DNA from: Elusimicrobiota bacterium
GTDB lineage: Bacteria > Elusimicrobiota > Elusimicrobia > UBA1565 > UBA9628
DNA length: 64,000 bases
Direction of reading: 5' to 3'
Assembly: GCA_027319565.1 (NCBI GenBank)
Contig: DAHVNA010000004.1
Location: forward strand, 1-64,000
Part shown: piece after piece, positions 58,159 to 64,000 of the stretch
How positions within the stretch are numbered: the stretch's first letter is position 1
How the letters are laid out: the number at the start of each line of letters is the position of its first letter
Notes under the pieces: model-generated
What the model saw: only the letters and a program-made list of their open reading frames with translations
The model's database searches: none
Told to the model about the DNA's origin: nothing
Translations under genes and position numbers: made by a program

Positions 58159-58803
58159 TTATTGTCCATCAACATCCCGCCCATGCCATAGAAGATAGAT
58201 CGCGGGATAGACGAGGAGTTCCAGGATAAATGAGGTGAAAAGACCGCCGACCATGGGGGCGGCGATTCGCTTCATGACGTCTGCGCCCGTTCCGGTCGAC
58301 CACATGGCCGGAAGAAGTCCCAGAAACGCGCAAGCGACCGTCATCATTTTTGGGCGCAGACGCTTGGCCGCGCCGTCATGAATCGCTTCTTTAAGATCGG
58401 CTTGCGTGTTAAGACGTCCGGCGGCGGCGCGCGCTTGTTTTTCGAGATTGAGATAGAGAAGCATGAAAATGCCCGTTTCGGCGTCAAGCCCTAAAAGAGC
58501 GATAAACCCTACCCAGACCGCGACGGAGAGATGATATCCCAAGAGCCACAACAGCCAAATCGCTCCGACTGCCGAGAACGGCACCGCGACTAAGACGATT
58601 CCCGCTTCAATCCAGGAGCCTGTGTTAAAGTAGAGAAGCAATACGATCAGCAAAAGAGCGAGCGGGCCGATGATGAGGAGCCTTTTCTCGGCTTTTTTCA
58701 TCTGTTTATACTGTCCGCTCAATTCATAACGATAGCCCGAAGGAAAAGTGACCGATTTCGCAATGGCCGCCTTGGCCTTTTGGACGTAACCCCCGATATC
58801 GGA
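58159..58803 (-). pseudogene. 5'-truncated duplicate of the last ~640 bp of cusA
   Basis: Collinear with 59790-60431, mostly synonymous differences; homology ends exactly at the 27-bp junction repeat. Confidence 0.92.
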
Positions 58804-59604: not shown

Positions 59605-59738
59605 CATCACTCCGGCAATCCCTAAGCCGGAGTCCAGACTCTCAGAAAGCCTACCACTGGCCGCTCCCCAACAGACTTTGGAAGCGGCATTTCCTCGGCT
59701 TATGCCTCGGTCAGATTCCGGCGTTCGCCGGAATGACG
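59605..59738. repeat. REP-like bipartite palindrome enclosing a copy of the cusA leader element
   Basis: CATCACTCCGGC..GCCGGAGTCCAG ... GATTCCGGCGTTCGCCGGAATGAC; interior 59658-59712 matches 63013-63064. Confidence 0.7.
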
Positions 59739-59789: not shown

Positions 59790-62700
59790 CTAATTCCCAA
59801 TATCCCGCCCATGCCACAAAAGATAAATCGCGGGATAGACGAGAAGCTCCAAGATAAATGAGGTGAAAAGTCCGCCGACCATGGGGGCGGCGATTCTTTT
59901 CATGACGTCTGCGCCCGTTCCGGTCGACCACATGGCCGGAAGAAGTCCCAGAAACGCGCAAGCGACCGTCATCATTTTTGGGCGCAGACGCTTGGCCGCG
60001 CCGTCATGGATCGCTTCTTTAAGGTCGGCTTGTGTGTTAAGACGCCCAGCGGCGGCGCGCGCTTTTTTTGCGAGATTGAGATAGAGAAGCATGAAGATGC
60101 CGGTTTCGGCATCAAGTCCTAAAAGAGCGATAAATCCCACCCAAACCGCGACGGAGAGGTGATATCCCAAAATCCACAACAGCCAAATCGCGCCGACGGC
60201 CGAGAACGGCACCGCGACTAAGACGATTCCGGCTTCAATCCAGGAGCCGGTGTTAAAATAAAGAAGCAATACGATCAGAAAAAGAGCGAGCGGGCCGACG
60301 ACGAGAAGTCTTTTCTCGGCTTTTTTCATCTGTTTATACTGTCCGCTAAATTCATAACGATAGCCCGAAGGAAAAGTGACCGATTTCGCAATGGCCGCCT
60401 TGGCCTTTTGGACGTAACCCCCGATATCGGAAGTTTTTAAGTCCACATAGACATATCCTGAGAGTTCGCCGTTTTCATCTCGAATCATGTCAGGTCCCTG
60501 GCGTATGCGAATTTCAGCGATCTCGGCCAATGGAATCTGCTCGTCTTTGGAAACGGGGACCAAAACTTCTCCGATTTTTCTCAAACTGTCTTTAAAGTCC
60601 GGGGCATAGCGCACGTTCACCGGAAAACGATCGCGGCCTTCGATGGTCTTCGTCACGCGCTCGCCTCCTAAGGCGGCGGCGATCATCGAATTTGCGTCAT
60701 CAACTGAAAGCCCGTATCTCGCCAAAGCCCGGCGCTTTAAAATGATGTCGGTGTAATAGCCCTGGGCGGTCCTTTCCGCCACGGCGCGCCTAGTTCCAGG
60801 CACGGAATTAAGAGCTCCTTCGATTTCAGCTCCGAGTTTTTGAATCACGGATAAATTCGGGCCGAAAATTTTAATTCCAACGGGCGTTCGCATTCCGGTT
60901 GAGAGCATATCGATGCGATTTTGTATGGGCTGGGTCCAGATATTGGGATAGCCCGGGATCTTAAGCTTCTGATTCATTTGAGAGATCAGCTGCCTCTGAC
61001 TCAAATGGCATTTCCAGAGTCCGCCGAGACAAGGCGTTGTCGGCCAAAATTTTCGGGGTTTTAAAACGACGGTCGTTTCCATCATGGACAAGGGTGCGGG
61101 ATCGGTCGCGGTTTCGGCGCGGCCAGCCTTGCCGTAAACGGTTTTAACTTCAGGGAAAGATTTGAGGATTTCGTCTTGAATTTGAAGGACCCTCCGGGCT
61201 TCCGTTATCGAGACTCCGGGAAGAGTGGTCGGCATGTAAAGGATGGTTCCCTCGTTGAGCGGAGGCATAAACTCAGATCCCAAGCGCCATAAAAGAGGCA
61301 GAGTCAAAAGGAAAAGCGCGGCGGCCGAGAAAATCGTTCGGCGCGGATTTTCCAAGACCCAGTTGACCACCGGCGAATAAATTTTAAAAAGCCGGCGGCT
61401 GATGGGGTGTTTCTCTTCCGGATAATAGCGTCCGACTAAAATGGCGTCGGCGGCGCGGTTAAGCCAATGCGGCTTAATATTAAATGAGTCCATTCGCGCA
61501 AAAAACATTCGGACTGCGGGGTCTAGGGTCACGGCTAAGACCGCGGCAAGCGTCATCGCGAAAGTTTTTGAATAGGCGAGAGGCTTAAATAACCGGCCTT
61601 CTTGCCCGGTAAGAGCGAAAATCGGAAGAAATGCGGCTGCGATAACGAGAAGCGAGAAAAAAACCGAAGGGCCGACTTCCATTAAAGCTTTGAGGCGCAC
61701 CTCATGAAAATCTCCCTTGCGTCCCTCTTCTTGCCACTCCTCAAGACGCTTGTAGGCATTTTCGACCTCGACAATCGCGCCGTCAACGAGAATTCCAATT
61801 GAGATCGCGATGCCGGAAAGAGACATGATGTTGGTGGTCAGGCCCAAAGCCGCCATCGGGATAAAAGCCAAAAAAACGGAAACCGGAATTGTCAGAATCG
61901 GAACCATGGCCGACGGCGGGTGCCATAAAAAAAGAAGGATCACGAGACTGACGATGAGCATTTCTTCAAAGAGCGTTTCTTTGAGCGTTCCGACGGCTCG
62001 TTTGATAAGACCCGATCGGTCATAGACCGGGATGATGCGAACTCCGGGCGGCAAAGAGGGAGAAATCTCTTTTATTTTTTCTTTGACGCGGTTGATCACA
62101 TTGAGCGCATTTTCTCCGCTGCGAATGATGACGATTCCGCTGACGGCGTCGCCAAGGCCGTTGAATTCCCCGACGCCTCGCCTTCGAGCGGGTCCCAGGC
62201 TGACTGTGGCGATATCTTGAACCAAAACAGGCGTTCCCGTTTCAGGGTCTCGTCCGACAGAAGTTTGCTCGATGTCTTTGATTCCTTTGAGATAACCGCG
62301 CCCTAAAATCATGAATTCTCTTCCCGAAAACTCGATCGTGCCGCCGCCCGCTTCGCTGTTGGATTCTGAAACGGCTTTGAGAACCTTGGTCAGCGAAATG
62401 TGATAGCTCCAGAGAGCGCTGGGATTTATTTTGACCTGATACTCTTTTTCATATCCGCCGATGGACGCCACTTCAGAGACGCCAGGAACGGCTTGAAGCT
62501 GATAGCGAATGTGCCAGTCTTGAAGGGCGCGGAGTTGAGATAAATCCAGCGCTTTTGAATCATCCACCAGCACGTACTGATAGACCCAACCAAGACTGGT
62601 CGCGTCCGGTCCCATTGCGGTTTTCACTCCTTTGGGAAGCTCCGGAATGATTTTGGATAGGTACTCTAAAACGCGCGAACGCGCCCAATAGAGGTCGGTT

Positions 62701-62996
62701 CCGTCCTCAAAAATTACGTAAACTAAAGACACCCCGAATTCATTGATCGCGCGAATCGCCTTAACTTTAGGCGCGCCCAAAAGAGCCGAGACGATCGGAT
62801 AAGTCACCTGGTCTTCCAATACTTCGGGCGATTGATCCCAGTTTGAGGAGACGATTACCTGAGTGTCCGATAAATCCGGTATCGCGTCGAGCGGCATTCT
62901 TTTGACCGTGTAAAAGGCGTAGGCCAAGGCCACGAGAGTCAAAAGAATAACGAGAAATTTATTGCGCGCCGAAAACGAAATGATTTTAGAGATCAT
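59790..62996 (-). CDS. cusA: CusA/CzcA-family heavy-metal efflux RND permease
   Basis: DAIPDLSDTQV, EDQVTYP, YWARSRVLEYL, GPDATSLGWVYQY, NIMSLSGIAISIG..VD, GSEFMPPL.EG.ILYMP, DPAPLSM.ET, RLRPKMMT. Confidence 0.95.
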   Translation of the reverse strand: MISKIISFSARNKFLVILLTLVALAYAFYTVKRMPLDAIPDLSDTQVIVSSNWDQSPEVLEDQVTYPIVSALLGAPKVKAIRAINEFGVSLVYVIFEDGTDLYWARSRVLEYLSKIIPELPKGVKTAMGPDATSLGWVYQYVLVDDSKALDLSQLRALQDWHIRYQLQAVPGVSEVASIGGYEKEYQVKINPSALWSYHISLTKVLKAVSESNSEAGGGTIEFSGREFMILGRGYLKGIKDIEQTSVGRDPETGTPVLVQDIATVSLGPARRRGVGEFNGLGDAVSGIVIIRSGENALNVINRVKEKIKEISPSLPPGVRIIPVYDRSGLIKRAVGTLKETLFEEMLIVSLVILLFLWHPPSAMVPILTIPVSVFLAFIPMAALGLTTNIMSLSGIAISIGILVDGAIVEVENAYKRLEEWQEEGRKGDFHEVRLKALMEVGPSVFFSLLVIAAAFLPIFALTGQEGRLFKPLAYSKTFAMTLAAVLAVTLDPAVRMFFARMDSFNIKPHWLNRAADAILVGRYYPEEKHPISRRLFKIYSPVVNWVLENPRRTIFSAAALFLLTLPLLWRLGSEFMPPLNEGTILYMPTTLPGVSITEARRVLQIQDEILKSFPEVKTVYGKAGRAETATDPAPLSMMETTVVLKPRKFWPTTPCLGGLWKCHLSQRQLISQMNQKLKIPGYPNIWTQPIQNRIDMLSTGMRTPVGIKIFGPNLSVIQKLGAEIEGALNSVPGTRRAVAERTAQGYYTDIILKRRALARYGLSVDDANSMIAAALGGERVTKTIEGRDRFPVNVRYAPDFKDSLRKIGEVLVPVSKDEQIPLAEIAEIRIRQGPDMIRDENGELSGYVYVDLKTSDIGGYVQKAKAAIAKSVTFPSGYRYEFSGQYKQMKKAEKRLLVVGPLALFLIVLLLYFNTGSWIEAGIVLVAVPFSAVGAIWLLWILGYHLSVAVWVGFIALLGLDAETGIFMLLYLNLAKKARAAAGRLNTQADLKEAIHDGAAKRLRPKMMTVACAFLGLLPAMWSTGTGADVMKRIAAPMVGGLFTSFILELLVYPAIYLLWHGRDIGN

Positions 62997-63101
62997 AGTT
63001 TGATTCCTCTGTGGCCGCTCTCCAACAGACTTGGAAGCGGCACTTCCTCGCCCATGCTCGGTCGGAACATTCTTGCGGCTTTTGCCGTATCAAAGGTGTA
63101 G

Positions 63102-63175
63102 GCCTCGCTAGCTCAACTGGATAGAGCGCACCGCTGACTACGGGGGAGATTCGGGTTCGAATCCCGAGCGGGGCA
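63102..63175 (+). tRNA. tRNA-like RNA / pseudo-tRNA (Arg-like body, aberrant anticodon arm)
   Basis: Acceptor GCCTCGC/GCGGGGC, D arm GCTC-AACTGGATA-GAGC, T arm TCGGG-TTCGAAT-CCCGA; anticodon arm CACCG-CTGACTA-CGGGG has an A.G mismatch and a pyrimidine at 37; no encoded CCA. Confidence 0.75.
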
Positions 63176-63236
63176 TATGCCGGTTTCCGGCGGATAGCGA
63201 CTTTCCCTCCAAAGTCAGCGGTCGTTGTCCATCCCC

Positions 63237-63266
63237 TTGACAAACATGCATAAGAGGGCTTACAAT
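63237..63266 (+). promoter_or_regulatory. Sigma70-type promoter TTGACA-N18-TACAAT
   Basis: Near-consensus hexamers about 80 nt upstream of a strong terminator T tract. Confidence 0.75.
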
Positions 63267-63271
63267 AAAGC

Positions 63272-63349
63272 GTAGGCGGTGTGCTCCGAGTTAGCGGAGT
63301 CTTCCCCGTAGTCAAAGCGGCGTCCACAAAGGCGCCGCTTTCTTTTTTT
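63272..63349 (+). ncRNA. Putative ~78-nt small RNA / attenuated leader complementary to the tRNA-like RNA
   Basis: Bounded by the promoter and terminator; internal hairpin CTCCG-AGTTAG-CGGAG; two segments antisense to 63124-63149. Confidence 0.6.
63314..63349 (+). terminator. Rho-independent terminator
   Basis: AAAGCGGCGTC-CACAAA-GGCGCCGCTTT followed by CTTTTTTT. Confidence 0.85.
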
Positions 63350-63371
63350 CCAGGGGTGCGGTTGATTTTTA

Positions 63372-64000
63372 TCACATCTTCATCCCGGGCATGGAGCCCA
63401 TTGAATCCGAGGGAGCGGCGTTTTTGGAGTCTTTGCCCGGTTGAGCGAATGATTGGATCGCGGATTGAAATTGAGATTCCGCGTCGATTAAAAAATTAGC
63501 CGAAGTCGTTACCGTTTCTCCGGGACTTAAACCCGATAAAATTTCGTAATAGCCCCCGGCTTTTGTTCCTAACTGGATTGATCTCGGATCAAGAGTCCCG
63601 TCTTCCCTAGCCACAAAAACGTATTGTTTCTCCCCGGTGTTTAAAACCGCGCCTTCCGGCACGCTCAAATGCTCTCCCAGCGGAGATTGAATTGTGACAT
63701 CCACATAGGTTCCGGGTTTGAGCAGTCCCAAGGCATCATCCAGCCGGGCTCTGACGCGCGCGGTTCGAGTGGTGGGGTTGATCACTGGATCTATTGAAAG
63801 GACATTTGTCGTCCAGACTTTTCCCGGGAGAGTTTGGGATTTAATCTTCACGGGAATTCCCGGATGAATGAATTGCAGGTCATATTCATAAACATCCGCA
63901 TAGACCCATACCGCCTGTCCGCGTTTTCCCACTAAAAGCCCTTGAGCGAGACTCGGATTCTTGACCCAGGCGGAAACCTGAGCGGGAGACAAACCTAAGA
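63372..64000 (-). CDS. cusB: CusB-type RND periplasmic adaptor (5' end lies beyond the window)
   Basis: VWVYADVYEYDL, IDPVINPTTRT.RVR, LKPG.YVDV, L.VP..AVL.TG, GL..GE.V..SANFLID.ES, Met-rich tail. Confidence 0.9.
   Translation of the reverse strand, partial: LGLSPAQVSAWVKNPSLAQGLLVGKRGQAVWVYADVYEYDLQFIHPGIPVKIKSQTLPGKVWTTNVLSIDPVINPTTRTARVRARLDDALGLLKPGTYVDVTIQSPLGEHLSVPEGAVLNTGEKQYVFVAREDGTLDPRSIQLGTKAGGYYEILSGLSPGETVTTSANFLIDAESQFQSAIQSFAQPGKDSKNAAPSDSMGSMPGMKM

Follow-up and report, generated by a model that had tools for sequence, protein, structure and literature searches.

A tRNA-Val(GAC) gene of clashing identity and its neighbouring antisense RNA in an Elusimicrobiota genome: a candidate RNA-only toxin-antitoxin pair

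The window, by which we mean the whole 64,000-nucleotide stretch that was analysed, holds a single tRNA gene called by ARAGORN, a tRNA-Val(GAC) at 63102-63175 on the plus strand. It lies in the 375-bp gap (62997-63371) between a cusB-like and a cusA-like gene, on the strand opposite to both. A preliminary description had placed it antisense within cusBA, which is correct for the strand, but the gene sits between the two coding sequences and inside neither. The same description had noted the tRNA-like gene alone; the gene is real, but a promoter, an antisense RNA and a terminator downstream of it had been overlooked. The tRNA gene and its surroundings are:

59790-62996, minus strand: cusA-like RND transporter gene, flanking (ORF; Pfam ACR_tran)
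63012-63068, no strand assigned: dispersed REP-like repeat adjoining the left edge of the module and outside it (blastn, 15 matches in its own genome including this copy)
63102-63175, plus strand: tRNA-Val(GAC) by ARAGORN with Arg-type body (A20), U37, A28.G42 and U4.G69; putative toxin
63372-63998, minus strand: cusB-like gene, 3' part, flanking (ORF; Pfam HlyD_D23)

A 129-aa ORF spanning the gap was rejected as spurious, having no Pfam match and lying at a site that is empty in a related genome (G004). The REP-like repeat, frequently found within GTCATTCCGGC-type palindromes, recurs in this genome at 59658-59715 of the window and at 13 further places; many copies also occur in relatives and the repeat is widespread in the order. 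Two of its copies precede a short ORF that we take to resemble the start of a GIY-YIG nuclease. Elsewhere in the window, a near-exact copy of the C-terminal 187 aa of cusA lies at 58159-58722, downstream of the intact gene. The two RNAs of the module described here, from the tRNA gene and from the unit downstream of it, would each find their complement in a cusB-cusA read-through transcript (62997-63371, minus strand).

Read directly from the sequence, the anticodon GAC occupies 63136-63138 and is followed by U37 at 63139; the anticodon stem has an A28.G42 mismatch (63130/63144), A20 lies at 63121, the acceptor stem includes a U4.G69 wobble, the discriminator is A73, and CCA is not encoded. 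The Rfam model RF00005 scores the gene at 48.8 bits (gathering score 29, E 2.7e-08), with one non-standard pair, located in the anticodon stem. The GAC anticodon, T37 and A.G mismatch noted earlier are confirmed. The minimum free energy fold of the tRNA alone lacks canonical D and anticodon arms. Across ten relatives, 97.1% of 210 cloverleaf cells are paired. The acceptor, D and T stems are paired in 100% of cases, bearing out the earlier view that these arms are intact and do not reflect simple decay, and the anticodon stem is 88% paired with compensatory change in four of its five pairs and a retained 7-nt loop, a mismatch being present in that stem in 5/10 aligned modules. The proposal of a tRNA-Arg(ACG) register shifted by 4 nt did not hold up, as this register yields no anticodon stem and its ACG triplet is not invariant (6/10 aligned relatives).

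The body of the tRNA points towards Arg. Among the 43 other tRNA genes of the genome, A20 is confined to the five Arg tRNAs (GCG, UCG, CCG, UCU and CCU), and with the anticodon arm masked the closest tRNA to that of the window is Arg(CCU). Housekeeping Val tRNAs have a purine at position 37 and no A20, and the window tRNA departs from them in both respects. The genome has its own canonical Val(GAC) on another contig (C58), which agrees with the earlier statement that the window gene is not a normal tRNA-Val; of the two genuine genes whose presence was to be checked, Val(GAC) was thus located, and no Arg(ACG) was found in the 92% complete assembly, where CGY codons are apparently read by tRNA-Arg(GCG).

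Downstream of the tRNA lies a second transcription unit, which ends in a terminator and is complementary to the tRNA in three segments:

63271-63350, plus strand: antisense small RNA of about 80 nt with a putative start; putative antitoxin (duplex and covariation)
63276-63286, plus strand: duplex segment 1, pairing with 63124-63134 (3' D strand and 5' anticodon stem)
63288-63297, plus strand: duplex segment 2, pairing with 63105-63114 (tRNA nucleotides 4-13)
63303-63314, plus strand: duplex segment 3, pairing with 63135-63146 (anticodon loop, including the anticodon, and 3' stem)
63314-63350, plus strand: intrinsic terminator that ends the antisense RNA (11-bp stem and U tract)

In this way 33 tRNA positions, anticodon included, can pair with the small RNA. 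In ten aligned modules, 92.7% of 329 duplex cells are paired and 15/33 pairs have changed on both sides; none of 500 shuffles reached an equally high value and slid registers gave 37-47%, although the modules are related and the structure was derived from one of them, so that the shuffle controls overstate the contrast and no probability is implied. G.U cells outnumber A.C cells (39 vs 16), as is expected of RNA pairing on this strand, and the longest exact complementary run is 11 nt compared with 5-9 nt beside 43 housekeeping tRNAs. The genome also holds a second odd tRNA with its own downstream region (contig C43), 72% identical to the window module over 251 columns, from which the window copy differs by four compensatory changes in the duplex; in cofolding each of the two copies favours its own partner (-9.8 kcal/mol against -3.9, and -18.8 against -4.6). 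As a stand-alone test, cofold energy was discarded: the cognate partner came first in only 14/34 modules (among the top five in 32/34), the window module's own partner ranks fourth, and housekeeping tRNAs with their downstream windows reach -12.9, leaving the groups poorly separated. In Rfam, no family matched the antisense RNAs at gathering score, and weak matches to STnc240, BTH_s1 and Xoo8, far below gathering, were set aside. The module contains no conserved ORF. As judged from its sequence, the locus is a tRNA with clashing identity accompanied by a separately promoted, co-evolving small RNA capable of pairing with it.

That the locus could be a decaying tRNA gene beside a chance inverted duplication is an idea we give hardly any credence. 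The modest Rfam score and several broken relatives would suit it, but compensatory change in both cloverleaf and duplex contradicts it, and the G.U bias, the conservation of promoters and terminator and the occurrence of three gene arrangements also speak against it. Another reading, which develops the guide idea of the preliminary description, is that the tRNA serves as a scaffold offering other RNAs a guide or an antisense stretch, in the manner of the phage C4/CI RNAs; the downstream RNA would then be its sponge or its target. C4-type phage RNAs are tRNA-shaped and present antisense sequence, and the anticodon arm here does pair with two downstream sites. Even so we judge this very improbable: complements of the anticodon arm elsewhere in the genome are at chance level (none of at least 13 nt, and three of 12 nt against about four reckoned by chance), no conserved gene follows the terminator that closes the downstream RNA, and in related modules this RNA is also met in divergent and convergent orientation. 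There is conservation of the anticodon and of the identity elements, Rfam gives no C4 match, and the terminator of the downstream unit faces the 3' end of cusB. Nor do the maintained anticodon stem, the preserved 7-nt loop and the recurrence of GAC in 8/10 aligned modules support a guide that had given up decoding. Rather than being a guide, the anticodon arm is itself targeted by a dedicated antisense RNA encoded beside it.

Three more elements complete the module:

63064-63090, plus strand: ECF-sigma-type promoter GGAAC-N17-CGTAT, presumed from its motif to drive the tRNA
63192-63230, plus strand: 3' trailer hairpin, putative precursor-inactivating element (inverted repeat; fold z -4.08)
63237-63266, plus strand: sigma-70 promoter TTGACA-N18-TACAAT of the antisense RNA (11/12 consensus matches)

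The loop region of the trailer (63206-63222) is complementary in cis to the anticodon arm (63130-63146). This pairing is weaker than the duplex, with 73.2% of cells paired and change on both sides in 9/17 pairs, and it is missing from one of the ten aligned modules. An exact TTGACA lies ahead of the antisense RNA in 24/34 modules, and GGAAC-N15-18-CGTA precedes 21/27 modules of the Elusimicrobiota type and 0/7 metagenome modules. The same ECF-type motif is also found in this genome ahead of an ECF sigma gene and recA. Genome-wide, the loose motif is not enriched (13 vs 11.7); a stricter version occurs 9 times vs 1-6, having been fitted after the fact. From the ECF-type and sigma-70 motifs we infer that the tRNA looks stress-inducible and the antisense RNA constitutive. 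The genome has seven ECF-sized sigma genes, and a candidate regulon with GGAAC-N16-17-CGTAT, including recA and the sigma gene, comprises positions C25:21871, C30:6418, C31:10227, C38:2689, C26:6007 and C23:17958.

Related modules are patchily distributed. A sequence-model search returned ten full-length GAC-type modules in 7/78 genomes of the family, and among 151 genomes of the phylum full modules were present in only two (G000, which is the genome of the window, and G017), with none beyond the family; six weaker matches in that set proved to be ordinary Arg or His tRNA genes. Sister classes with the anticodons GUC, GCU, GCC, GGC, AAC and CUC have their own matched antisense RNAs. Further genomes and metagenomes also contain the GAC/U37 type, its antisense RNA lying in tandem, divergent or convergent position, and named records with related modules are mostly Elusimicrobia. 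A pattern scan of a genome collection gave 13 matches, two of them ordinary Arg tRNAs. The 26 metagenome matches comprised ten tandem modules (some duplicates, and one with a 5'-truncated tRNA), five of divergent type (four checked), one at a contig end, six Arg-anticodon tRNA calls and four degenerate copies; as the metagenome pattern required A20, C36 and a base other than A at position 37, these matches are no evidence for those features. Neither of two pattern scans of viral contigs produced a match, a search of plasmids yielded a single partial match covering the tRNA only, and three metatranscriptome contig sets contained no match to this stretch, which says nothing about expression. One locus (L060) carries a family tRNA with no antisense RNA within 1.2 kb on either side.

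Several relatives are organised in larger units. Two loci, L061 and L089, are tandem arrays in which two or three GAC/U37 tRNAs follow one another; every tRNA has its divergent antisense RNA, and the loop of a hairpin downstream of it can pair with the anticodon. L061 bears the label Bifidobacterium breve but may be misbinned. At L099, L106 and L090, extra promoter-antisense-terminator units without a tRNA of their own follow the first antisense RNA, and those of L099 and L106 look complementary to a tRNA with a CUC anticodon. In L037 (about 669-790) and L077 (3069-3208), a related insertion of about 50-65 nt occupies the same place in the T arm of tRNAs of different classes, the antisense RNA being intact.

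The module behaves like a cassette. Of six genomes compared at the orthologous cusB-cusA junction, three have a module, each a different one (that of the window, a GUC module in G001 and a CUC module in G002), G003 has only an antisense RNA, G005 retains a remnant of the terminator, and the site is empty in G004. A search led by the antisense RNA gave ten matches, in which the tRNA was intact in six and absent, deleted, interrupted or mismatched in the acceptor in one each. Matches of the family found through the tRNA kept the antisense RNA in 10/11 cases. Taken together, these counts point to asymmetric decay, with the antisense RNA often outliving the tRNA. HicBA or ParE genes are neighbours at L022, L037, L077, L081 and L082; type II toxin-antitoxin neighbours were thus seen at 5/28 loci scanned for small same-strand ORFs, four of the five in one genus, and the window locus has none. 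Near 5850-5920 of L022, a collapsed module with the 5' half of the tRNA fused to the 3' half of the antisense RNA lies between two HicBA pairs.

These patterns bear on whether the module might serve its host as a stress-induced, antisense-gated mistranslation switch producing low, tolerated levels of error rather than growth arrest, a reading we regard as unlikely. A stress-sigma promoter is as compatible with a response that serves the host as with a selfish toxin, and the motif shared with the ECF sigma gene and recA, the mild nature of Asp-to-Asn and Glu-to-Gln exchanges and the lack of a toxin-antitoxin neighbour at the window copy would agree with such a switch, as would the increased carbenicillin tolerance brought about by mistranslation through tRNA-ProX (PMC10404621). 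The patchy presence in the family and the exchange of modules at one site, however, look selfish, and orphan antisense RNAs and arrays with HicBA look like selfish cassettes.

Identity clashes were scored for each class against the identity table in PMC9976931, in which bacterial Arg identity consists of A20, C35, U/G36 and A/G73, bacterial Val identity consists of A35, C36 and A73 and is impaired when position 3 or 4 is in a G.U pair, and amidation requires U1-A72. The window tRNA carries A20 and a purine discriminator, as Arg tRNAs do, and lacks C35 and U/G36, having A35 and C36 in their place; a C followed by U/G is found one base later in 9/10 aligned modules. It has the main ValRS determinants (A35, C36 and A73), A73 being present in only 6/10 relatives. 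C3-G70 is shared with the genome's own Val(GAC) and is thus no antideterminant here. Throughout the GAC class, A20 and C36 are present in 10/10 and base 37 is U or G in 9/10 and never A, while positions 34, 35 and 73 vary, the discriminator is not conserved and C73 occurs in 2/10. We infer that an ArgRS reading C36-U/G37 one base late would fit this pattern of conservation. The window tRNA, which keeps A35, C36 and A73 and has no C35 in the normal register, could also be valylated and harmless, and the GAC class is less clear-cut in identity than the GCU and GUC classes. In the GCU/GCC class, the short variable arm and C35 occur in 7/7 and A20 in five by script and in the other two by eye; the GCU class combines A20, C35 and U36 with a 4-nt variable arm, a set that predicts Arg at Ser codons. 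U1-A72 and G73 are found in 9/9 tRNAs of the GUC class, and the hosts tested have GatB (5/5) and no AsnRS above the cut-off (0/5), from which Asn at Asp codons is predicted. The CUC modules also have U1-A72.

The same elements allow a reading in which the tRNA does harm or is of use without decoding: an uncharged or poorly charged tRNA jams ribosomes or a synthetase, or acts as a decoy for anticodon nucleases, with the small RNA as off-switch. An odd or non-purine base 37, C73 and the mismatched anticodon stem are poor for decoding, and some allo-tRNAs are lethal without codon suppression (PMC5389517). We nevertheless consider it quite improbable: the GCU and GUC classes, with their canonical loops and full determinants for the wrong amino acid, are sensible only if charged and used.

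The explanation we prefer, and hold to be somewhat better than evenly probable, is that the module is a toxin-antitoxin pair made solely of RNA, its putative toxin being a tRNA that mis-decodes. An ECF (stress) sigma factor would transcribe the tRNA as a precursor, kept inactive by pairing of the trailer with the anticodon arm until processing and CCA addition. The mature tRNA would be charged at least partly with Arg via A20, the C35-U/G36 determinants perhaps being replaced, one base along, by C36-U/G37. It would read the Val codons GUC and GUU (about 4.5% of codons), so that Val-to-Arg errors or frame slips would stop growth. The small RNA from the constitutive sigma-70 promoter would invade and unfold the tRNA, and toxicity would show itself only once induction outstripped the supply of antisense RNA or that RNA was lost. 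Sister modules would place Arg at Ser AGY, Asn at Asp and Gln at Glu codons. The toxin-antitoxin reading is favoured by covariation, own-partner preference, identity clashes, toxin-antitoxin neighbours, asymmetric decay, turnover at the junction and the toxicity of natural missense tRNAs; it is weakened by possible valylation, weak discrimination in cofolding, the small number of toxin-antitoxin neighbours, the L060 tRNA without antisense RNA and the unenriched loose ECF motif. On the wider proposal our judgement is evenly divided: these modules may form a widespread, modular RNA-only toxin-antitoxin class, in which a code-misreading tRNA toxin (Val to Arg, Ser to Arg and, by way of GatCAB, Asp to Asn and Glu to Gln), produced as a self-inhibited precursor from a stress-sigma promoter, is unfolded by its cognate antisense RNA, the GAC class being read one base out of register.

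The locus holds a real, co-evolving pair of tRNA and antisense RNA of a kind that we did not find described. No tRNA with a dedicated antisense partner appears in the literature searched, which included PMC11415595 and PMC7609411 and in which most subscription papers were not searchable. In E. coli, toxicity has been described for natural missense tRNAs (PMC5389517, PMC10404621). If the proposal is true, it would provide both a purpose and an off-switch for natural mismatched tRNAs, which in these cited papers are toxic and have a control that is left unexplained; it would also add a third way in which RNA-only toxin-antitoxin systems act and be a case of an antisense RNA that serves a single tRNA. 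Annotation by anticodon labels such genes ordinary tRNAs for Val, Asp or Ser, so that they are missed. The complete unit is shorter than 300 bp and depends on host enzymes alone.

Compared with known tRNAs, that of the window shares with an ordinary tRNA-Val(GAC) (RF00005) the cloverleaf, the 7/5 branch and A35, C36 and A73, and differs in A20, U37, U4.G69, its status as an accessory copy and its own antisense RNA. Pro identity elements are C1-G72; the window tRNA has G1-C72, and its flanks are cusB and cusA, with no ProRSx. The tRNA-ProX of Streptomyces is likewise a natural mismatch of body and anticodon and is toxic when expressed, but it combines Pro identity with a dedicated synthetase gene, whereas the module described here has no synthetase and a dedicated antisense RNA (PMC10404621, the main text of which has no occurrence of 'antisense'). 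The allo-tRNAs of Mukai et al. (PMC5389517) likewise show mismatched identity and anticodon, missense suppression that kills E. coli, and a location near toxin-antitoxin systems. They have an 8/4 or 9/3 acceptor branch and mostly Ser identity, in contrast to the 7/5 branch, short variable arm and Arg-type body seen here (PMC5389517). Neither 'antisense' nor 'complementary' occurs in the main text of that paper, and its supplements on allo-tRNA loci may bear on novelty.

Among toxin-antitoxin systems, the module resembles hok/sok and tisB/istR in having a self-inhibited precursor and an antisense RNA with its own promoter, and differs from them in having no conserved ORF. In these type I systems, a self-inhibited precursor is opposed by a short antisense RNA from its own promoter, and the toxin is an mRNA-encoded peptide. 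SdsR is an mRNA-regulating small RNA overlapped by RyeA. The type VIII systems CreTA and SdsR-RyeA likewise consist of two adjacent small RNA genes, on the same or opposite strands, one proposed as toxic and one as neutralising (PMC10767807, TADB 3.0), and the window too has two RNA partners side by side, a tRNA gene and a promoter-sRNA-terminator unit. CreT sequesters rare tRNAs, and CreA acts via Cascade on transcription. We do not place the module in the type VIII class, toxicity and rescue being predictions here. Unlike in CreTA and SdsR-RyeA, the proposed toxin is the tRNA itself, and the non-overlapping antitoxin would pair with that tRNA directly.
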